Positions 35,699 to 46,053 of a stretch of DNA of 64,000 bases are shown in pieces. Under the pieces are notes generated by a model. The model made no database searches. It was not told where the DNA came from and saw only the letters and a list, made by a program, of their open reading frames with translations. The stretch's first letter is position 1; each line of letters starts with the position of its first letter. The DNA lies in the NCBI GenBank assembly GCA_963767925.1, contig CAVYGB010000008.1, positions 1,856,001-1,920,000 on the forward strand. Reading direction: 5' to 3'. Made by a program: the position numbers and the translations under genes. This DNA comes from an uncultured delta proteobacterium (lineage in GTDB: Bacteria > Myxococcota_A > Polyangia > Fen-1088).

Positions 35699-36061
35699 GT
35701 GCCCGAACGAATCGGTCGGCGCCGGCGTCCGACCAACCCGGAGCCCCAGACCGCGGCGTCCCTGCTTCCGCAGGTTGTCGCGCGGCTGGGCGGTAGCGAC
35801 CGGGGCCTCGAGCAGCGGATCTCGCTCGCCTGGAAGGACGCCGTCGGCGAGTCGCTGGCGCGGCGGGCTCGTCCGGAAGCCGTCCGGGGCAAGACCCTCA
35901 TCGTGCGGGTCGAGAGCTCCTCGCTCGCCCACGAGCTCACGCTGCTCAAGCGGCGGGTGCTCGAGCGGCTGAGCGTGGCCCTCGGCGCTCCGCTCATCGA
36001 GGACATGCGCACGCGCACCGGCCCGCTACCGCTGCCCACGCCCCCGCCAGCTAACCGCTAG
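35699..36061 (+). CDS. DUF721/DciA-like protein
   Basis: WKDAVGESLARRARP...LIVRVESSSLAHELTL.K. Confidence 0.85.
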   Translation: MPERIGRRRRPTNPEPQTAASLLPQVVARLGGSDRGLEQRISLAWKDAVGESLARRARPEAVRGKTLIVRVESSSLAHELTLLKRRVLERLSVALGAPLIEDMRTRTGPLPLPTPPPANR

Positions 36062-36106
36062 CGATCGGCTGGCGAGGCGGGTTGCTCCGGGGCCCCGCGG
36101 GCGCGG

Positions 36107-36919
36107 CTAACGCGAGCGGAGGGCGGCGGTAAGACCGCGAACGAAGGCCTCGAGGTCGGGGACCGGATCGCGACCGGCCTTCTGCGCCTCCTCGATGACC
36201 TTTACCGCGGCGGTCCCCACCACCACTCCGTCGGCAAAGGTGGCCACGGCCGCGGCGTCTTCGGGGGTGGAGATGCCGAAGCCGACCGCGATGGGGATGT
36301 TCCCCCCGGTCAGCTCGCGGATCTCCGCCACGTGGCGCCGGGGACCGTCGAGGTTGGCGAGCCGGGCCCCGGTGATGCCGGTGAGGGACATGTAATAGAG
36401 GAAGCCGCTGGCGCTGGCGGCCACCTTGCGCGCGCGGGCGGCGTCCGAGGTGGGGGCCAGCAAGGGGATGAAGTCGAGCCCGTTGCGACCGAGCTCGGAG
36501 ATCAGCTCGGAGCCCTCGTCGGGCGGCCAGTCGACGCACAGGACGCCGTCGGCGCCCGCGGCCGCCGCCGATCGCGCGAAGTCGGCGGGACCGCGGATGA
36601 AGACCGGGTTGGCGTAGCCGAACAGGACCAGCGGCACCCGGCTGTCCTCCGCCCGGACCTGGCGGCACAGCTCCAGCGTGGCCCGCAGCCCGCCCCCGCC
36701 GCGCAGAGCCCGCAACATCGCGGCCTGGATGGCGGGGCCATCGGCCGACGGATCGCTCCAGGGCACGCCGACCTCGAGCACGTCGGCCCCCGCCCGGACC
36801 GCCGCCAGCAACAGCCGGCGAGAGGTCTCGGCGTCGGGGTCGCCGGCGGTCAGGTAGAGGACCAGCGCCGTGCGGCCTTCGCTCCGGGCCCGGGCGAAGG
36901 CCTGAGCCAGGCGGCTCAT
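36107..36919 (-). CDS. trpA: Tryptophan synthase alpha chain
   Basis: MSRLAQAF start overlapping the trpB stop; [41 protein letters not shown]. Confidence 0.97.
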
Positions 36920-38133
36920 TTGGGCAGCTCCACGCCGAGCGCCCGGGCCACGCTCGTCATGTCCTTGTCGCCTCTGCCCGAGACGTTCACGACGATGATC
37001 CCGCCGGGATCGAGCGTGCGGGCCACTGCCGGCAGGGCGGCGATGGCGTGGGCGCTCTCGAGCGCCGGGAGGATGCCCTCGAGGCGGGCGAGCTGACCGA
37101 GGGCGGCCAGGGCCTCCTTGTCGGTGACCGAGATGTACTGGGCCCGGCCCGTATCTTTTAGGTGGGCGTGCTCGGGGCCGACGCCGGGGTAGTCCAGGCC
37201 TGCGGAGATGGAGTGGGCCTCGGCGATCTGCCCGTCCTCGTCGCACAGGACGTACGATCGCGCCCCGTGAAGGACGCCCACCCGCCCCTGCGCCAGGGTG
37301 GCGGCGTGGCGCCCGCTGGCGATCCCCTCACCGGCCGCCTCGACCCCGACGAGCCGGACGCCGGCGTCGGGGACGAAGGCGTGAAACAGCCCCATGGCGT
37401 TCGATCCCCCGCCCACGCAGGCGCAAAGCGCGTCGGGTAAGCGGCCAACGGCGGCCTGGATCTGCTCGCGCGCCTCGCGGCCGATCACGGCCTGCAGGTC
37501 GCGGACGAGCGTCGGATAGGGATGGGCGCCCGCGACCGATCCGATCACGTAGTGGGTGGAGCGAACGTTGGTGACCCAGTCCCGCATCGCCTCGTTCATC
37601 GCGTCCTTTAGGGTCGCGGTCCCGGTGCTGACCGCGTGGACCTCGGCGCCGAGCAGCTTCATCCGGAAGACGTTGAGCGCCTGACGCTCGACGTCGACGG
37701 CCCCCATGTACACCTCGCAGGGCAGCCCGAACAGGGCGCAGGCGCTCGCGGTGGCGACGCCGTGCTGGCCGGCTCCGGTCTCGGCGATGATGCGGGTCTT
37801 GCCCATCCGCCGGGCCAGCAACACCTGGCCGATGCAGTTGTTGATCTTGTGCGCCCCGGTATGGCAGAGGTCCTCGCGCTTGAGGAACACGCGAACCTCG
37901 CGCCCGGCCTCGCGGCTCACCTCGGCGCCGAGGCGCAGGGCCTCTCCCAGCGGCGTGGGCCGTCCCACGTAATCCCGTAAGAGCCGATCCAGCTCCTCGG
38001 TGAAGGCGGGGTCGACCGACGCCTCTTTCCAGGCGGCGGCGAGCTGATCGAGCGAGGGCATCAAGATTTCGGCGACGTAACGGCCGCCGAATTCGCCGAA
38101 GCGGCCGGGGCGCGCGGGAGCGGAGGCAGACAT
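36916..38133 (-). CDS. trpB: Tryptophan synthase beta chain
   Basis: [58 protein letters not shown]. Confidence 0.98.
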
Positions 38134-38199
38134 GGAGGCGGGAGACTACACTGGCCGGGACCGAACGTCGCGCCACCTGTGCTATATCGGCCTCTGCCC

Positions 38200-38553
38200 A
38201 TGCCGGAGCTGGAGCCAGAATCCGAGGTGTTCGATCCCCGCAGCCGCCGTCTTTGTCCCGACGGAACCTGCATCGGCGTGATCGGCGCAGATGGTCGATG
38301 CAAGGCCTGCGGGCTGGCCGCTAGACCGGGCCTCGCCGGTGAGGCGTCGGGCGCAGCGCGGGATCTGGAGCGGGAAAAGGAAGAGGACCTGGCCACCGAC
38401 GATCTCGACGAGCCGGACGCCGGCCTGGCCGCCGAACCGATCGGCGGCAGCGGCTTCGATCCCACCCGGAAGCTGTGCGTCGACGGGAGCTGCATCGGGG
38501 TCATCGGGCCAGATGGCCGCTGCACCGAATGCGGCCAGGTGGCGGAGGCCTGA
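38200..38553 (+). CDS. Small acidic protein with two Cys4 motifs (LCxDGxCIGVIGxDGRCxxCG)
   Basis: RRLCPDGTCIGVIGADGRCKACG and RKLCVDGSCIGVIGPDGRCTECG. Confidence 0.8.
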   Translation: MPELEPESEVFDPRSRRLCPDGTCIGVIGADGRCKACGLAARPGLAGEASGAARDLEREKEEDLATDDLDEPDAGLAAEPIGGSGFDPTRKLCVDGSCIGVIGPDGRCTECGQVAEA

Positions 38554-38555
38554 AC

Positions 38556-38915
38556 ATGCCCTCGGTGGCCGTGATCGGCGCCTCCAACGTCCGGGAGAAG
38601 TTCGGCAACCGCGCGGTGCGGGCCTACCTGCGGCAGGGCTGGACCGTCTATCCGGTCAACCCGAACGAGACCACGGTCGAGGGCCTCGCGGTCTTCGCCA
38701 GCATCCTCGACATCCCCGGCGAGGTGGACCGCGCCTCGCTGTACGTGCCGCCGGCCGTCGGGGAGACCCTGCTGGCCGACATCCGGCGCAAGGGGGTCAA
38801 GGAGCTGTTCGTTAACCCCGGCGCCGAGAGCGACACCTTGCTGGAGCAGGCCGAGAAGCTCGGGCTCTCTCCCATCCAGGCCTGCAGCATCGTCGACATC
38901 GGCGAAAGGCCGTGA
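38556..38915 (+). CDS. CoA-binding domain protein (YccU-like)
   Basis: VAVIGASNVREKFGNRAV, VYPVNP, NPGAES, CSIV. Confidence 0.9.
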   Translation: MPSVAVIGASNVREKFGNRAVRAYLRQGWTVYPVNPNETTVEGLAVFASILDIPGEVDRASLYVPPAVGETLLADIRRKGVKELFVNPGAESDTLLEQAEKLGLSPIQACSIVDIGERP

Positions 38916-39888
38916 GCAGCGGCGCCCCACCCTCCGAGCGCTCGGCCGTGGCTCCCGCGGTCAGCAACATGCTCGAGCTCATCGGCGGCACGCCCCTGGT
39001 TCGTCTGCGCCACCTGCCCGACCCGGAAGGCGCGGAGGTGTTCGTCAAGTGCGAGCAGTTCAATCCGGGGGGCTCGGTCAAGGACCGGGTCGCCCTGGCG
39101 ATGATCGCGCGTGGCGAGCGCGAGGGCAAGCTGGTCCCCGGCAAGTCGGTCATCGTCGAGCCCACCTCGGGAAACACCGGGGTGGGGCTGGCGCTGGTGG
39201 CGGCGGTGCGCGGCTACCGGCTGATGCTGACCATGCCCGACAACATGTCGATCGAGCGGCGCATGTTGCTGTCGGCCTACGGCGCCGAGGTGATCCTGAC
39301 CCCGGCCGCGCTGGTCATGCAAGGGGCGGTCGACAAGGCGGCCGAGCTCTGCGCCGGAAACCCCGACTACGTGAGCCCGCAGCAGTTCCAGAATCCGGCC
39401 AACGTCGAGGCCCACCTGCGCGCCACCGGCCCCGAGATCGTGGCCCAGCTCGCCGAGGCCGGGCGGCCCGGCTGCGACGCCTTCGTGGCGGGGGTGGGGA
39501 CCGGCGGCACCATCACCGGCGCCGGCCGGGTGCTCGGCGGGCCTTCCCCCAGGTGCGGATCGTCGCCATCGAGCCCAGCAAGAGCGCGGTCCTGTCCGGG
39601 CGAGCGGCCGGTGAACACCGGATCGACGGCATCGGGGCCGGCTTCGTCCCCGAGATCCTCGACCGGTCGATCATCTCGGAGGTGCGCACCATCAGCGAGG
39701 AGGAAGCCCAGGAGCACAAGCTGGCCCTGGCCCGGCGGGAAGGCCTGCTGGTCGGAATCTCGGCGGGGGCGGCGGTCAAGATCGCCCTGGACGTGGCGCG
39801 GGAGCTGGGTCGCGGGAAGACCGTCGTCACGGTGTTGCCCGACACCGGCGAGCGCTACTTCAGCAGCGACGAGTCGTTCGAGCGGTGA
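38912..39888 (+). CDS. cysK: Cysteine synthase A-type PLP enzyme (frameshift ~39540)
   Basis: IGGTPLVRL, FNPGGSVKDRVA (PLP Lys), EPTSGNTG, GVGTGGT; after the shift HRIDGIGAGFVPEIL, GISAGA, LPDTGERY. Confidence 0.9.
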
Positions 39889-40595
39889 GCGCGCCGGGCG
39901 TGCTGCTCATCGGTGCCGGCGGGCTGGGCTGCGGCGCCGCGATCGGGCTGGCCGGCGGCGGGGTCTCCACCCTCGGGGTGGTGGACGACGACACCGTCGA
40001 TCTCAGCAACCTGCACCGCCAGATCCTCCACCGCCCCGAGCGGGTGGGCGCGCGCAAGACCGAGTCGTTCCGGCAGGAGCTGGCGATCCGCTACCCGGGC
40101 CTGCGGGTGACGGTCCACGACGGCCGACTCACCGGGGCCAACGCCGCGGCGCTGTTCGCCGGCTACCAGGTCGTCATCGACGGCTCGGACAACCTGGCCA
40201 CCAAGTTCCTGGCCAACGACGCCGCCGTGCTGACGGGCAAGGCGCTCGTCCATGCGGCGGCGGTGGGCACCGGCGGCCAGCTCATCACGGTGCTGCCGGG
40301 AGGCCGCCCCTGTTACCGCTGCCTGTTCGAGGAGCTCCCCCCGCCCGAGGCCGATGCGCCGTCGTGCGCAGAGGCCGGGGTGCTGGGCCCGGTGCCGGGC
40401 GTGCTGGGCGCGCTGGCCGCCTCCGAAGCGGTGCGGCTGCTGCGGGGCGAGGCGCCCGCCTTCGCCGGCTGGGTCCTGCGCTACGAGGGCTCGCTCCTGT
40501 CGATGCGGGCCTCCCGGTTCCGGCGCAACCCGCTGTGCCGGGTCTGCGGCGACCGGCCGACGATTGACGGCTCGTCCCTCCGGCTCGACCCGTGA
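39885..40595 (+). CDS. ThiF/MoeB-family E1-like adenylyltransferase (active-site-bearing, lacks the N-terminal arm)
   Basis: GAGGLG, DDDTVDLSNLHRQ, DGSDN, CYRC, SCAEAGVLGP, CRVC. Confidence 0.93.
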   Translation: MSAPGVLLIGAGGLGCGAAIGLAGGGVSTLGVVDDDTVDLSNLHRQILHRPERVGARKTESFRQELAIRYPGLRVTVHDGRLTGANAAALFAGYQVVIDGSDNLATKFLANDAAVLTGKALVHAAAVGTGGQLITVLPGGRPCYRCLFEELPPPEADAPSCAEAGVLGPVPGVLGALAASEAVRLLRGEAPAFAGWVLRYEGSLLSMRASRFRRNPLCRVCGDRPTIDGSSLRLDP

Positions 40596-40652
40596 GGCCA
40601 ACCCCACCCCGAGAAACGCGCTACAGTACCCGCGAACAAAGGAGACAGCGAC

Positions 40653-40925
40653 ATGGCCAGTGTTCGGATCCCCACGCCTCTGCGCAAGCTGACCAACGGT
40701 CAGGAAGAGGTCAAGGCGGCCGGCGGCAGCGTGGCCGCGATCATCGCCGACCTCGACAAGCAGTACCCCGGGCTGCGCGAGCGCATTTGCGACGACCAGG
40801 GGAAGGTCCGCCGCTTCGTGAACATCTTCAAGAACGACGAGGATATCCGCTTCCTGCAGAGCCTCGAGACCCCGGTCGCCGACGCCGACGAGCTCTCGAT
40901 CGTCCCGGCGATCGCAGGGGGTTGA
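40653..40925 (+). CDS. Ubiquitin-like (MoaD/ThiS/CysO/SAMP) sulfur carrier protein
   Basis: VRIPTPLR, LDKQYPGL, RRFVNIFKNDEDIRFL, C-terminal VPAIAGG; AGGAG RBS. Confidence 0.95.
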   Translation: MASVRIPTPLRKLTNGQEEVKAAGGSVAAIIADLDKQYPGLRERICDDQGKVRRFVNIFKNDEDIRFLQSLETPVADADELSIVPAIAGG

Positions 40926-40936
40926 CGGAAGCGGCC

Positions 40937-41590
40937 GTGAGCCTGTCGCTCGAGCAGACCCGCCGGTTCGCCCGGCAGATCGCCCTGCCCGAGGTCGGCC
41001 CCGGCGGCCAGCTCCGCCTGGCCGAGGCCGGGGTGGCGCTCGTGCGCGCGGCCCCCGATCGGGACCCGTCTGGCGACGTCGCCGCCGAATACCTGGCGGC
41101 GGCTGGCGTCGGTCGGATCGTGCCGCTGGCACCTCCGGCGGAAGGGGGCGAGGCCTGGGTGGCGGCCCTGGCCGGGTTCACCGCCGTCGTGCGCTTCGGC
41201 TTCGAAGACGACGCGCTCCTGCGGGCGGCGGTTCGACGGGGGCTACCGGCCATCTTCGCCCGGGCCCTGACTGACCAGGTCGACGTCCTGTCTTTCCGGC
41301 GGCACGGGCCCTGCCCCCACGTGGCCCTCGACGTGCCGGTCCGCAGCGCGACCGGCCCCGGGGCCGAGGCGGGCGCCGGCGCCTCGGTGGCCGGCACCCT
41401 GGTGGCGACCGAGCTGCTGGGGATCCTGGTGGCCCCCGAGGCGGGCCCCCGGGCGAGGCTGCTGCGGCTGTCCCTGGCCGGCGGCGATCGGGCCCGACCT
41501 CCCCAGGCCTCGGAGATGCCCTGGGCCCCCGAGTGTTTCATCTGCGGCGGGCAGAGCCAGGAAGCGGCCTTCACCGGAGCCCGCTCATGA
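40937..41590 (+). CDS. Degenerate ThiF/MoeB-family protein (N-terminal Arg arm present, ATP loop absent)
   Basis: GTG start; LSLEQTRRFARQIALPEVGPGGQLRL, AAEYLAAAGVG, GPCPH, PECFICG. Confidence 0.82.
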   Translation: MSLSLEQTRRFARQIALPEVGPGGQLRLAEAGVALVRAAPDRDPSGDVAAEYLAAAGVGRIVPLAPPAEGGEAWVAALAGFTAVVRFGFEDDALLRAAVRRGLPAIFARALTDQVDVLSFRRHGPCPHVALDVPVRSATGPGAEAGAGASVAGTLVATELLGILVAPEAGPRARLLRLSLAGGDRARPPQASEMPWAPECFICGGQSQEAAFTGARS

Positions 41591-42589
41591 GCGATTCGCC
41601 GGCCGTCCCCCTCCCGGTCGACAGCGAGGCGGTGGCCCGGGCCCGCGCCCGGGTGGCCGAGAGCATCACCGACCTCATCGGCAACACGCCGATCGTGCGG
41701 CTGCGCTCGATCGATCGCGACTTCCCCGGGATCGAGATCTGGGCCAAGTGCGAGTTCATGAACCCCGGTGGCTCGGTCAAGGATCGGGCTGCCTTCCAGA
41801 TGATCCGCGACGCCATCGACAGCGGGGCCCTGACCCCGGACAAGGAGATCATCGACTCGTCGAGCGGCAACACCGGGATCGCCTACTCCCTCATCGGCGG
41901 CGCCCTCGGTTACCGGGTCACCCTGGTGCTGCCGGGCAACGTCTCCTGGGCCCGGCGCCAGATCAGCGAGGCCTTCGGCACCAAGCTGGTCTTCTCGAGC
42001 CCCCTCGAGGGCTCGGACGGGGCCATCGTCCTGGTTCGCAAGCTGGTGGACGCGGATCCCGAGCGCTACTTCTATCCGAATCAGTACGGCAACGACTCCA
42101 ACCCGGGCGGCCACTACCGGACGACCGGCCGCGAGATCTGGGAGCAGACCGGAGGCCGGGTCACCCACTTCGTGACCGGCATCGGCACCAGCGGCACCGT
42201 GATGGGGACCGGCCGGCGGCTCAAGAGCTACCGGCGCGAGATCGAGGTCTATGCGGTGGAGCCCGACGATGCCCTGCACGGTCTCGAGGGCCTCAAGCAC
42301 ATGGAGAGCTCGATCGTGCCGGAGATTTACCACCCCGAAGAGCTGGACGGGGTGCTGCCGATCTCGACCGAAGACGGCCTGGGACATCTGCGAGCGGCTC
42401 TCGCGCGACGAGGGCATCCTGGTGGGCCACTCCTCGGGAGCGGCGGTGGCGGGGGCGGTGCGCCTGGCCCGGGAGCTGGCCGCCGCGGGCAAGCCCGGCG
42501 TCATCGTGACGGTCTTTCCCGATCGGGCCGACCGCTACTTCGAAGCCCCTCTTCAGACCCAGACCACCCCGTCCAAGGAGAAGCCGTGA
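41587..42589 (+). CDS. Second PLP cysteine synthase, CysM-like (frameshift ~42378)
   Basis: IGNTPIVRL, FMNPGGSVKDRAA, SSSGNTG, GIGTSGT, LEGLKHM; after the shift GILVGHSSGA, VTVFPDRADRY. Confidence 0.88.
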
Positions 42590-43061
42590 CGAAGGGACCT
42601 CATCCCCGGTTGACCCCGGCGGCGCTGGAGCGAGATCTACGCCCACGCCCGCCGCGACTATCCCAGCGAGTGCTGCGGGATCGTGTTCGGACCCAAGGGG
42701 CAGCCCCTGGCCGAGCGGGTGAAGGCCTGCCGCAACATCCAGGACCAGCTCCACGCCGACGATCCCGATCTGCATCCCCGCACCTCGCGCAACGCCTACA
42801 ACCTCGAGCCGACCGACATCTTCGCTCTGCGAGAAGAGCCTGCGGGGCGAGCAGCCGGCCAAGATCGTCTACCACTCGCACATCGACGTGGGCGCCTACT
42901 TCAGCGAGACCGACCAGGCCGCCGCCCGCTTCGGGGACGAGCCCGCTTACCCGGTCGAATACGTTGTCGTCGACGTCAAGCGGGACGGCACCCACGGGGC
43001 CCGCCAGTTCGCCTGGGACGAGGCGGCCACCAAATACGTCGAAGTCGATCAGTACGACTGA
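42586..43061 (+). CDS. JAB/MPN+ (Mov34, Mec-like) metallopeptidase (frameshifts ~42630 and ~42832)
   Basis: Manual reading across frames: IYAHARRDYPSECCG (catalytic Glu), RNIQDQLH, IVYHSHIDVGAYFSETD (HxHx7Sx2D); TGA at 43061. Confidence 0.85.
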
Positions 43062-43079
43062 CGGGGGGACCTGGGGGCG

Positions 43080-43739
43080 ATGAAGCTCTACGGCTACTGG
43101 CGCAGCTCCTCGGCCTGGCGGGTGCGCATCGCCCTGCTGCACAAGGGCCTGCCCTTCGAATACCAGCCGGTGCACCTCGTCCGCGACGGCGGCGAGCAGC
43201 ACGGCGCCGGCTACCGGGCGCTCAACCCCATGGCCGAGGTCCCGACCCTCGAGATCGAGGACGCAGGGAAGATCCGGCACCTGGGGCAGTCGCTGGCCAT
43301 CCTGGCCTACCTCGAGCGGATGGCGCCGAGCCCCCCCTTGCTCCCGGCCGACCCCTTCGCGGCGGCCCGGGCCTGGCAGCTTGCCGAGGTGGTGAACGCC
43401 GGGACGCAGCCGCTGCAGAACAGCGCCGTTCTCCTGCGCGTCAAGAACGAGCTCCGCGGGGACGAGCAGGCCTGGGCCCGCCACTTCATCGCCCGCGGCC
43501 TGACCGCCCTCGAGGCGCTGGCCCGCGACAGCGCCGGCCGATTCCTGGTGGGCGAGGCGGTCAGCGTCGCCGATGTGTGCCTGGTTCCCCAGCTCTACAA
43601 CGCCCGTCGCTACGGGGTCGAGGTGGGTGCCTATCCAACCTTGCTCGCGGTGGAGGGGAGCTGCCTGGCGCTCCCCGCCTTCGTGGACAGCCACCCCGAC
43701 CGCCAGCCGGATGCCCCCGCCCCGCCGGCCCGCGGCTAG
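43080..43739 (+). CDS. maiA: Maleylacetoacetate isomerase (GST zeta)
   Basis: MKLYGYWRSSSAWRVRIAL, NPMAEVPTL, QSLAILAYL, QPLQN, ADVCLVPQLYNARR, HPDRQPD. Confidence 0.93.
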   Translation: MKLYGYWRSSSAWRVRIALLHKGLPFEYQPVHLVRDGGEQHGAGYRALNPMAEVPTLEIEDAGKIRHLGQSLAILAYLERMAPSPPLLPADPFAAARAWQLAEVVNAGTQPLQNSAVLLRVKNELRGDEQAWARHFIARGLTALEALARDSAGRFLVGEAVSVADVCLVPQLYNARRYGVEVGAYPTLLAVEGSCLALPAFVDSHPDRQPDAPAPPARG

Positions 43740-43781
43740 GGCTGTGCACCAGCTGTCAACGCGCTGGCGGCTTCCGCCGAT

Positions 43782-45062
43782 GTGCGGAGGGTGCCGACCA
43801 CGACGGCCCCTTCGGCCGACGAATCCCGGGCCCAAGAGGACGGCCCCCAGGAGATCACCCGCCGGATAACCATCCCGGGCTTCGTCCTGGGGCAAGCGCC
43901 CGAGCTCGACCGGCGCATCTGGATGCTGGCCGCCACCCGCTTCGTCGTCACCGCCGGGTTCGCGGCGGTCATGCCCTTCCTGGCGCTGCACCTGGTCGTC
44001 GAGCGGAACTTCCCCATCCTGCGCATCGGCCTCCTGTGGACGGTGGTCGGCCTGATCAGCGCCTCCATGCAATGGGTCGCCGGCCAGATCACCGACCGGC
44101 TGGGTCGGCGGCGGGTGCTCCTGTGGGCCATGGTGATCCGCTCGCTGAACCTCGCCCTGCTCGGCTGGGCCATCGGCGCGCGCGCCTCGTTCGCGACCAT
44201 CGGCGCCCTGTGCGTCCTCAACGGGGCCATGCGCGCGTTCTACGACCCGGCTGCCTCCGCCCTCGTAGCGGCCCTTTGCTCGCGGGACAAGCGGGTCGCC
44301 GCCTTCTCCCTGCACCGGGTGGGATCCAGCCTGGGCTGGGCCGCGGGCCCGCTGGCCATCACCTTCGCGCCCGAGACGGCCTACGCCACCATCTTCTACG
44401 TCGCCGCGCCCATCACCTTCATCGCCGCCGGGGCGGTGGCGATGTTGCCCGACTCGGGCAGCATGTTGAGCCCCTCCCGCCTGCGCTGGTCGCAGATCGC
44501 CGCGTTCCGCCGGGATCGCAAGTTCATGCGCTTCCTGCTGGCGACGCTGCCGTTTTTCGTCCTGCAGACGCAGATGTACCACATGCTCCCGATCTTCGCG
44601 GCCAAGTACCTGGGTCTGGATCGGACGCAGGTTGGCTCGCTCTTCGTGGTCAACGGCATCCTGGTGGTGCTCGTGCAGCTCCCCGCGGTGACGCTGATCC
44701 GCCGGATGGGGACGGCGGGCGCGCTCGTCCTGGGATCGCTCGGGTACGTGGTGGCCTACTTCGGGGTGGGCCTGGCCACCGGCTACCTGAGCCTCCTGTT
44801 CTGCGTGGTGCTGGCCACCCTCTGCGAGATCGCGGCGGTCCCGGCCCACCAGGCCCGGGTCACCGCCCTCGCCCCCATCGACAACGTGGCCGGCTACGTG
44901 GGCCTGGGCGGCCTCGTGCAGGGCATCGCCCAGACCAGCGGGCCGATCGTCGGGAGCTGCCTCATCGAGCTGACCAGCCCCAGCGTCGGCTGGATGGTGC
45001 TGGCGCTGCTGGGGGTGGCGGCTGCGGCCGGCTTCCGCCGGCGTCGCCCCGTGAAGCCCTGA
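43782..45062 (+). CDS. MFS transporter
   Basis: About 12 hydrophobic segments; motif A GQITDRLGRRRVL. Confidence 0.9.
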   Translation: MRRVPTTTAPSADESRAQEDGPQEITRRITIPGFVLGQAPELDRRIWMLAATRFVVTAGFAAVMPFLALHLVVERNFPILRIGLLWTVVGLISASMQWVAGQITDRLGRRRVLLWAMVIRSLNLALLGWAIGARASFATIGALCVLNGAMRAFYDPAASALVAALCSRDKRVAAFSLHRVGSSLGWAAGPLAITFAPETAYATIFYVAAPITFIAAGAVAMLPDSGSMLSPSRLRWSQIAAFRRDRKFMRFLLATLPFFVLQTQMYHMLPIFAAKYLGLDRTQVGSLFVVNGILVVLVQLPAVTLIRRMGTAGALVLGSLGYVVAYFGVGLATGYLSLLFCVVLATLCEIAAVPAHQARVTALAPIDNVAGYVGLGGLVQGIAQTSGPIVGSCLIELTSPSVGWMVLALLGVAAAAGFRRRRPVKP

Positions 45063-45069
45063 CCGCCGC

Positions 45070-46053
45070 TCAGGCCTTGCCGATCTCGAAGACGGTCGAG
45101 CCGGTGGTCCGACGCCCCTCGAGGGCGCGATGGGCCTCGGCCGCCTCCGCCAGGGGGAAGGTCTGGTCCACCCGGATCTTCACCTCGCCCGAACGGGTCA
45201 CCGCGAACAGATCGCCGGCGGTGGCCAGCAGCTCGGCCCGGCTCGCGGTGTAGGCGAACAGGACCGGGCGGGTCAGGTAGAGCGACCCCTTGGCCGCCAG
45301 GAGGAGCGGATCCAGGGGCGGCACCGGGCCGGAGGACTGGCCGAACAGGACCAGCATGCCCCGGGGCCGGAGGCAGTCGAGCGACTGCGCGAAGGTGTCC
45401 TTGCCGACGCTGTCGTAGACCACCCGGACCCCCCGGCCGCCGGTGATCTCGCGAACCCGGTCGACAACCGACTCCCGCGAATAGACGACCACGTGGTCAC
45501 AGCCGTTTTCCCGGGCCAGCCGGGCCTTATCGTCGTTGCCCACCGTCCCGATCACGGTGGCCCCCAGCTTCCTGGCCCACTGGCAGGCGATCAGGCCGAC
45601 GCCGCCGGCCGCGGCGTGAAACAGGATTGTGTCGCCCGCCTGGACCTGGATGGTCTGGCGCAGGAGGAACTGGGCGGTCATCCCCTTGAGCATCATGGCC
45701 GCGGCCGTCCGGTCGTCGATCTCTGGCGGCAGGGGGACCACGCGGTCGGCCGGCAGGACGCGTTCCTCGCTGTAGCCGCCGGGGGTTCCACCGGCGTAGG
45801 CCACCCGGTCGCCGACCCGCAGGTCGCCGACCCCCTCGCCGACCTCGGTCACCACGCCGGAGGCTTCCATGCCGGGCGTGAAGGGGAGCGGCTGCTTGTA
45901 GAGCCCGGTCCGATGGTAGACGTCGATGAAGTTCAGGCCGGCGAAGCGGTGCCGGATGCGGACGTCGCCCCGGCCGAGCGGCGCATCGGGGAGATCTTCC
46001 CAGCGAAGCACCTCGGGGCCCCCCACCTCGTGAACGCGGATCGCTCTGGGCAT
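45070..46053 (-). CDS. qor: NADPH:quinone oxidoreductase (zeta-crystallin/Qor)
   Basis: MPRAIRVHEVGGPEVL, GLNFIDVYHRTGLY, HAAAGGVG, VYDSVGKDT, KGSLYLTRP, RRTTGS. Confidence 0.95.
   Translation of the reverse strand: MPRAIRVHEVGGPEVLRWEDLPDAPLGRGDVRIRHRFAGLNFIDVYHRTGLYKQPLPFTPGMEASGVVTEVGEGVGDLRVGDRVAYAGGTPGGYSEERVLPADRVVPLPPEIDDRTAAAMMLKGMTAQFLLRQTIQVQAGDTILFHAAAGGVGLIACQWARKLGATVIGTVGNDDKARLARENGCDHVVVYSRESVVDRVREITGGRGVRVVYDSVGKDTFAQSLDCLRPRGMLVLFGQSSGPVPPLDPLLLAAKGSLYLTRPVLFAYTASRAELLATAGDLFAVTRSGEVKIRVDQTFPLAEAAEAHRALEGRRTTGSTVFEIGKA

Follow-up and report, generated by a model that had tools for sequence, protein, structure and literature searches.

The operon

We describe an operon within a 64,000-nucleotide stretch of DNA (hereafter the window) from an uncultured soil myxobacterium (delta proteobacterium) of the class Polyangia, in which two genes for E1-like adenylyltransferases, here called E1-a and E1-b, flank a gene for a ubiquitin-like (Ubl) sulfur carrier. 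E1-a has the ATP site of a MoeB/ThiF-type enzyme and lacks the N-terminal arginine-bearing arm; E1-b has the arm and has lost the ATP site. From sequence comparison and structure modelling we suggest, at a probability of roughly 0.6, that the two proteins make up an E1 heterodimer that is asymmetric (pseudo-symmetric) and activates the operon's CysO/MoaD-like carrier, with E1-b donating its arm.

The operon lies on the plus strand in DNA of about 71% G+C, between trpBA (minus strand) and a gene resembling those of glutathione S-transferases, and its genes are tightly coupled, with start and stop codons overlapping at cysK/E1-a (GTGA), E1-b/cysM (ATGA) and cysM/JAMM (GTGA). In order, it comprises:

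38556..38915, plus strand: coenzyme A (CoA)-binding domain protein, first gene of the operon (Pfam CoA_binding_2, 89 bits)
38912..39888, plus strand: cysK-type cysteine synthase, broken by a 1-base deletion near 39535 (PALP domain over two frames)
39885..40595, plus strand: E1-a, armless MoeB/ThiF-type adenylyltransferase, putative active subunit (ThiF 23–238 of 238, 195 bits)
40653..40925, plus strand: Ubl, ThiS/MoaD/CysO-like sulfur carrier ending in Gly-Gly (Pfam ThiS, 58.7 bits)
40937..41590, plus strand: E1-b, degenerate full-length E1 paralogue (arm with R10, R13 and Q14; Zn site; dimer helix)
41587..42589, plus strand: cysM-like pyridoxal 5'-phosphate (PLP) enzyme, broken by an extra base at ~42371 (PALP over two frames)
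42587..43061, plus strand: JAMM/Mov34 (Mec-like) peptidase in three frames, with shifts near 42638 and 42840 (the pieces form one frame in relatives)

The Gly-Gly carrier thus shares its operon with a PLP enzyme of the CysM type and with a JAMM peptidase, the combination by which CysO–CysM–Mec systems are recognized, with the matches of the CysM and the JAMM peptidase lying under the NCBIfam cut-offs and both genes frameshifted in this assembly.

E1-a lacks the N-terminal arm

E1-a starts at a GTG (39885) inside the overlap with the cysK stop, is 236 amino acids (aa) long and opens with MSAPGVLLIGAGGLG, its first strand lying only 5 residues from the start. It carries GAGGLG (10–15), SNLHRQ (41–46), DGSDN (99–103), CYRC (143–146), SCAEAGVLG (160–168) and CRVC (218–221). 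The match to ThiF (PF00899, cut-off 28.1 bits) begins at profile position 23, and that to the NCBIfam MoeB model PRK05690 covers 34–249 of 250 positions; the missing positions, about 1–22 in ThiF and up to 33 in MoeB, are those of the arm. Among 47 orthologues there is no variation at the ATP-site residues G10–G15, R45, K58 and D102, and C143, C146, C218 and C221 of the structural Zn site are likewise invariant among the orthologues. E1-a has just a crossover-loop Cys, and the operon encodes neither a catalytic-Cys domain nor a ubiquitin-fold domain; no rhodanese domain appeared among the NCBIfam and Pfam profile matches of E1-a or E1-b, and no E2-like gene was seen among the open reading frames (ORFs) read in 36000–46000.

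Such a gene is open to misreading in annotation as N-terminally truncated. No RYxRQ arm was found for E1-a in the window, in 19 loci fetched from the same family (f1) or in other pipelines' gene calls, and the JGI, NCBI and ENA pipelines call the same short N-termini. Plausible starts in the f1 loci lie 4–25 codons before the G-loop, and the frame upstream of them is the out-of-frame tail of cysK; in one locus (L014) the sole start lies ~34 codons upstream and brings no arm motif, and another (L018) is truncated by the contig end. A longer E1-a from an upstream start that includes the arm, an outcome that would have overturned the proposal, was accordingly ruled out, since what is open upstream is the end of cysK in another frame, with no arm motif in the window or in 19 relatives. 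A frameshift artefact in E1-a or E1-b was ruled out as well: E1-a, Ubl and E1-b carry no frameshift and align over their full length with relatives, despite the indels in their neighbours. In a tree of the E1-a core, built with a single loss of the arm in mind, the f1 clade has support of 98/97 and the deep nodes are unresolved.

The C-terminus of most E1-a orthologues is a tail, L....Y....C, whose conserved Cys is possibly a persulfide carrier; the tail is missing from the window (40560–40595) and from a same-genus relative.

E1-b is a degenerate E1 domain that keeps the arm

E1-b (217 aa) starts at GTG 40937, with an alternative TTG at 40922 that overlaps the Ubl stop, ends at 41590 and contains RRFARQIALPEVGPGGQ. 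Besides the arm it keeps a Cys/His Zn site (GPCPH plus CFxCGG) and the dimer helix (146–162). It matches Pfam ThiF over profile positions 1–47 only, at 24.5 bits and so under the cut-off, and the MoeB model over 4–59 of 250. Considering that E1-a covers ThiF 23–238 and E1-b 1–47, the two proteins share out the family profile between them. Neither GxGxxG nor SNLxRQ occurs in any of 50 E1-b sequences, in which the ATP loop, the ribose Asp, SNLxRQ and the Lys have been lost, and the window E1-b is also without the crossover-loop Cys.

Despite this degeneration, profile alignments and modelling show that E1-b spans an entire E1 domain. Built from 50 orthologues, its profile matches Escherichia coli ThiF (1zfn, 3.6e-15, residues 3–250) and MoeB (1jw9, 1.5e-13, full length) and, in hhalign, aligns over 196 columns with that of E1-a (probability 94.4%); in the profile alignment ThiF Arg11 is aligned with E1-b R13. 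The AlphaFold2 model has a predicted local distance difference test (pLDDT) score of 87.6, with Uba4, ThiF and MoeB as the best folds. Twenty-two columns are invariant and 29 nearly so in the 50 sequences. The conserved blocks are the arm (R10, R13, Q14, A16–E19, G21, G24 and Q25), AAGVG, GFDDD, FRxHGPCPH, the helix AGTLAAxE and IPWxPECFxCGG, of which the arm is the best conserved (0.77 vs 0.60). Within the genus E1-b is the fastest-evolving of the three proteins (63% identity, against 75% for E1-a and 94% for Ubl). Public records name it 'hypothetical protein' or 'ThiF family adenylyltransferase'.

The first-pass annotation of this DNA had described E1-a as an armless protein beginning 5 residues before its first strand and equipped with all the motifs listed above, E1-b as its arm-bearing counterpart without GxGxxG, SNLxRQ and the loop Cys, and both as open, unshifted frames. 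ORF reading, profile matches and full-length alignment with relatives bear this description out in every part; every orthologue of E1-a, too, begins just before the G-loop.

E1-a and E1-b occur together in Polyangia

We compared 40 related genomes, 24 of them from f1. E1-b is present in 21 of the 24, and in 20 of these E1-a lies on the same contig, at 57–75% identity; the 21st (G022) is fragmentary, with the pieces spread over two contigs. In the three f1 genomes without E1-b (G008, G016 and G023) no E1-a orthologue was found either. All 19 f1 loci that were fetched read cysK, E1-a, a threonine synthase (ThrC)-like gene in most, Ubl, E1-b and cysM, with E1-a always armless; JAMM pieces follow at the 3' side in 16 of the 19, the remainder being cut by the contig end or without a match.

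A scan of prokaryotes with one genome per species yielded 27 E1-b loci, all in Polyangia/Myxococcales metagenome-assembled genomes (MAGs), and E1-a was found in 23/23 of the loci with enough upstream DNA, the remaining four contigs being too short. When 1.84 billion representative proteins were scanned with the E1-b profile, 45 clusters were returned at E <= 1e-30, and E1-b is therefore a small family. In some f1 genomes it is shortened, to 101–187 aa (L020, L022, L024 and L031).

Natural variants: reduced, fused and partnerless forms

Outside f1, other families of the class have a much smaller E1-b (91–158 aa), which consists only of the arm, the first strand–helix (AAGVG) and the interface helix. 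Six genomes (G028, G030, G031, G032, G033 and G037) pair an armless E1-a with such a mini-E1-b of 125–158 aa, and both Arg residues of the arm are invariant across 11 aligned E1-b forms. In another genome (G040; L060:3766–4827) an armless E1-a continues at its C-terminus into a mini-E1-b of 91 aa, the whole being one 353-aa protein, and the same fusion is found again in an independent assembly (P0241). The G040 fusion is in effect a permuted MoeB, and no Ubl or cysM gene lies nearby. A search with the G040 tail for more fused forms, from which 8 matches were fetched, gave P0241 as the only fusion; six candidates of 344–348 aa and one of 360 aa were ruled out as membrane-anchored normal MoeB proteins.

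In a fen MAG (L053, 4252–5678) E1-a and E1-b are still adjacent, and Ubl, cysM and the JAMM gene have been lost. The converse of the split is seen in G026, where the arm is part of the operon E1 itself and E1-b is absent. The flanks of L053 are unchanged (trpBA and quinone oxidoreductase); its E1-a has no crossover-loop Cys, GVGPPAGPLG replacing ADAPSCAEAGVLG.

A second pseudo-E1 family in metagenomes

Beyond the 45 clusters, the profile search yields a second set of proteins, of 215–238 aa and to all appearance unrelated to the first, in which the arm is perfect (MLTDxQIERYSRQIILPxVGGxGQ), both CxxC pairs are kept and the G-loop has degenerated. Metagenomes were scanned with these proteins, 80 loci were kept, and their E1-like frames were classed by purpose-built hidden Markov models and by motifs. 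An arm-only pseudo-E1 is encoded in 34 loci (among L075–L124), in the order E1-a, a ThrC-like gene in some, Ubl, cysM and pseudo-E1. Wherever these loci reach 5' of Ubl an armless E1-a is present (14/14, in eight cases complete and in six truncated where the contig ends); the remaining 20 contigs stop too early for assessment. Of 45 loci with a normal E1, having both arm and G-loop, none has an armless E1; L104, a candidate exception, was dismissed because it has an RYGRQ that the pattern had overlooked. No member of the second family turned up in 301 Myxococcota genomes, which gave only MoeZ-like matches of <=192.6 bits in frames mostly of 380–470 aa, and the split E1 would for this reason occur outside the window's phylum as well. 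Two loci (L088 and L089) hold arm-bearing E1-like frames without a G-loop that score ~110 bits on the E1-a model and may be degeneration intermediates.

The predicted E1-a/E1-b complex

The complex was predicted for one E1-a plus E1-b pairing built from two alignments, in three runs and with three controls. The interface score ipSAE was 0.91 in the three runs, against 0.00 for the best control; in calibration, 116 of 157 solved complexes and 2 of 215 mismatched pairs came up to the same mark. At least 97% of contacts were shared between runs, and partner pLDDT was at least 78. One part of the predicted interface sets the arm (E1-b 9–14, 16–17 and 19–20) against E1-a 40–45 and 47, that is, LSNLHR of the phosphate-binding motif, and the other pairs the helix E1-b 146–162 with E1-a 164–184. 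The E1-b residues of this interface are conserved at 0.72, against 0.58 elsewhere, a value as high as which was reached by 10 of 10,000 random subsets. The arm of E1-b had been expected in the E1-a site, and the prediction does place it on SNLHRQ, in a result that does not separate a heterodimer from an E1-a homodimer.

Proposed mechanism and its alternatives

That E1-a and E1-b take part in a complex of some form seems to us quite probable. The complementary motifs, their conservation, the co-occurrence, the reduction series and the fusion can be read directly from the sequences; physical heterodimerization, donation of the arm and a need for E1-b are what we infer. In the mechanism that we propose, E1-a would bind ATP and the carrier and adenylate the C-terminal Gly-Gly of the latter, and the pseudoenzyme E1-b would pair with E1-a via the canonical E1 dimer helix. 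The arm of E1-b would be laid over the single ATP site of E1-a, with R13 as the counterpart of MoeB Arg14 and ThiF Arg11, and would thereby supply an element that neither E1-a itself nor a second E1-a could offer. The activated carrier would next be thiocarboxylated, its thiocarboxylate would supply CysM and, in relatives, the ThrC-like enzyme, and the JAMM peptidase would free the product. According to the available part of PMC13139853, ThiF Arg11 and MoeB Arg14 do act from the neighbouring subunit, which agrees with the earlier statement that MoeB Arg14 completes the partner's site in trans.

Several points weigh against an E1-b that is required as arm donor. All of the support is computational, and the related genomes are non-independent samples. 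The score of the complex may stem from the model's memory of solved MoeB/ThiF homodimers, and the prediction does not distinguish the heterodimer from a homodimer of E1-a. The short E1-b forms of f1 suit an arm donor but fit relaxed constraint equally well. The armless operon E1 of one genome (G034, 95% complete) is not accompanied by an E1-b, either in the 8-kb locus or in the rest of the genome, where the sole arm-bearing E1 is a MoeZ-like gene; G034 is a counter-example to obligate partnership. Finally, PMC13139853 reports, in the part available, that the ThiF and MoeB fingers are not essential, that TcdA has none and that R59A in Tcd1 has little effect. An armless E1-a could therefore be active alone, and the non-essential fingers together with G034 make a structural or regulatory rather than a catalytic role of E1-b possible. 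The E1 of the G034 operon (L069, G034:C1:1541500–1549500) is divergent, with GNLPRQ, DCTDA and an altered second CxxC, and offers a natural case in which to ask if an arm is required.

The first-pass annotation had proposed an obligate asymmetric heterodimeric E1 and had asked whether an armless E1-a is always accompanied by E1-b. The asymmetric pairing of an armless with an arm-bearing protein has gained from the comparative lines and from the complex prediction, and the association holds in 23/23 Polyangia loci and 14/14 metagenome loci; 'obligate' is weakened by G034 and by the non-essential fingers, and G034 is an exception to 'always'.

It is conceivable, if unlikely, that the heterodimer is real and the arm Arg unimportant, E1-b serving to enforce one active site per dimer and maybe as a docking or regulatory subunit; by analogy with proposals for inactive eukaryotic E1 subunits and for Tcd1, it may dock the sulfur donor, CysM or the JAMM peptidase. 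The dispensable Arg fingers of MoeB and ThiF and the small effect of Tcd1 R59A (PMC13139853, in part) would be in keeping with this, as would the absence of a rhodanese domain from E1-a, so that sulfur must come via a partner, and the conservation in full-length E1-b of FRxHGPCPH, IPWxPECFxCGG and GFDDD, which a pure arm donor would not need. Mini-E1-b, however, drops all of these extra motifs and keeps the interface helix and the arm with both Arg invariant, and it is the arm that is the best-conserved block of E1-b (0.77 vs 0.60).

We consider it improbable that there is no heterodimer at all, E1-a working as an armless homodimer and E1-b as a separate, E1-derived non-catalytic protein such as a carrier chaperone or adaptor. 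Such an arrangement would account for the armless operon E1 of G034 without E1-b, is compatible with the complex prediction and has a precedent in TcdA, which functions without a finger (PMC13139853, in part); it sits poorly with the fusion of E1-a to mini-E1-b in one lineage, with L053, which keeps the pair without Ubl, with the retention of exactly the dimer helix in the mini forms, and with the strict co-occurrence of armless and arm-only forms in two gene orders. That E1-b is a functionless, decaying duplicate, its frame open merely through high G+C, would explain its faster evolution (63% identity, vs 75% for E1-a and 94% for Ubl) and some short copies, but we give it hardly any credence, since an open frame is kept in 21/24 family genomes and in other families, 22 columns are invariant and 29 nearly invariant in 50 sequences and the E1-fold model is confident (pLDDT 87.6), a degree of conservation by which this explanation is largely refuted.

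Comparison with known E1 systems

Asymmetric E1s are familiar from eukaryotes, in NAE1(APPBP1)–UBA3 and SAE1–SAE2. Like E1-a/E1-b, these consist of two E1-fold subunits with one ATP site, the inactive subunit keeping the N-terminal segment with the trans-arginine, and the N-termini of SAE1 (E 0.002) and NAE1 (E 0.31) are among the weak matches of the E1-b profile. Unlike them, the window system lacks a catalytic-Cys domain, a ubiquitin-fold domain and an E2; its product is presumably a protein thiocarboxylate, whereas that of the eukaryotic E1s is a thioester; and its subunits are of 217–236 aa, with the inactive one down to 91 aa in other lineages. To judge from its best matches, ThiF and MoeB, E1-b has an origin independent of the eukaryotic inactive E1 subunits. 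The likeness is thus one of the adenylation core only, and the pair is not a member of that family; to this extent the parallel drawn in the first-pass annotation stands, and it does not extend to the Cys domain, the ubiquitin-fold domain or the E2.

With E. coli MoeB–MoaD and ThiF–ThiS the window pair shares the fold, the ATP-site residues, the Zn site, a Gly-Gly carrier and the adenylation chemistry. In the symmetric homodimers of MoeB and ThiF, arm and ATP site are both present on every chain, whereas in the window these features are found on two gene products. The operon logic of carrier, CysM and JAMM peptidase is shared with CysO–CysM–Mec and MoeZR of Mycobacterium tuberculosis (PMC3227635, available in part), and Streptomyces MetO–MetM–Mec–MoeZ follows the same logic, with the ThrC-like enzyme being found in relatives of the window; the MetO/MetM route, which this enzyme calls to mind, figures in GapMind 2026 (PMC13759103, likewise in part). 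An operon type with a ThiS/MoaD-like carrier, an E1, a JAB protein and a cysteine synthase was described in 2006 as types 4c and 4d, its E1 being, in the portion of that article available, a single protein fused to rhodanese (PMC1779556). In MoeZ-type systems a single E1 carries an arm together with a rhodanese domain, in contrast to the split and rhodanese-free E1-a/E1-b of the window; MoeZ-like genes of ~400 aa occur elsewhere in the related genomes.

Inactive and active E1 halves have been found together before. BilD of the Bil antiviral operons is a bacterial E1 whose inactive and active adenylation domains form a pseudo-dimer (PMC10557695, in part). It is one polypeptide with a CYS domain and an E2 partner and acts in protein conjugation, whereas the window has two genes split by Ubl in a sulfur-carrier operon; the G040 fusion differs from BilD in having the active domain first and then a mini inactive domain, with no CYS domain. 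In yeast Tcd1–Tcd2, a ThiF-like dehydratase that makes cyclic N6-threonylcarbamoyladenosine (ct6A) in tRNA, inactive Tcd1 offers an Arg59 finger to active Tcd2 (PMC13139853, in part). Unlike the window pair it is eukaryotic and has a tRNA substrate, long extra domains in both subunits and a dispensable finger. Full-text searches, in which subscription journals are thinly covered, returned no two-gene bacterial E1 heterodimer. The suggestion that such an arrangement was undescribed in bacteria therefore survives for the two-gene, sulfur-carrier form, which is what is new here, and not for asymmetric bacterial E1s in general, which are already known as the single-chain BilD.

Split E1s may be a recurrent and undescribed bacterial design, in which a pseudo-E1 is essential as trans-arginine-arm donor and which is spread over Polyangia and, with another gene order, over other phyla, maybe with more than one origin; we put this forward tentatively, at somewhat less than even odds. 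Its forms would range from a dead paralogue of full length down to a 91-aa module of arm and helix, plus the C-terminal fusion. If it is correct, bacteria would offer a living model of the transition between homodimeric MoeB and the eukaryotic heterodimeric E1, and the freed surface of the dead subunit could recruit a sulfur donor or downstream enzymes. The E1-a/E1-b heterodimer itself, if real, would be a new architecture among the sulfur-carrier activators, which are the oldest branch of the superfamily. Being small and tractable (217 + 236 aa, with natural minimal and fused variants), the system lends itself to study of the role of an inactive E1 half, and is suited to asking whether the arginine arm matters when it is not supplied symmetrically and how a homodimer turns asymmetric by complementary loss.

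Neighbouring genes and the assembly

The source assembly (13 contigs, 9.34 Mb) has an estimated completeness of 83.8%, a figure which for 13 contigs suggests that it is prone to indels. Public relatives of the window proteins are labelled as Polyangia or Myxococcales MAGs. The single-base indels given above (39535, ~42371, ~42638 and ~42840) hit cysK, cysM and the JAMM gene, and every fetched relative reads through them; the extra base at 42371 is missing from one soil-metagenome contig. We interpret these indels as errors of the assembly or, at the most, as lesions at strain level. Over 40510–40691 and 40892–41044 the window has identical counterparts in short-read soil-metagenome contigs, by which the sequences of E1-a, Ubl and E1-b are confirmed in part. 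No RNA data set is listed as containing this DNA, of which two soil DNA runs alone contain small shares. A further ThiF-family gene of the genome, outside the window (G000:C8:2897980–2898686), is also spread over three frames.

The CoA-binding gene lies 5' of cysK in 10 of the 19 fetched f1 loci, and three of the other nine end upstream with the contig. In relatives cysK is one frame (389.6 bits for a relative's copy on the NCBIfam cysK model, cut-off 350.95), and cysM is likewise unbroken (319.9 bits for a relative's copy on NCBIfam cysM, under the cut-off of 394.2). Ubl, of 90 aa, scores 60.9 bits on NCBIfam SAMP1 (cut-off 60) and is 70–94% identical to its relatives. The JAMM peptidase carries an HSH..(7)..S..D motif, and that of a relative weakly matches the desampylase model (E 8.7e-7, under the cut-off).

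The gene between E1-a and Ubl in most relatives is of the threonine synthase family (419 aa, L015:3715–4974; TIGR00260, 263 bits) and encodes an N-terminal Cys-rich stretch; its product may be a MetM-like, thiocarboxylate-dependent homocysteine synthase. It is missing from the window, from its genus and from several other lineages.

Between trpB and the operon, window positions 38179–38553 (plus strand) encode a small protein with two copies of a zinc-ribbon-like motif, RRLCPDGxCIGVIGxDGxCxxCG, and a similar protein is encoded in the equivalent position in L053.

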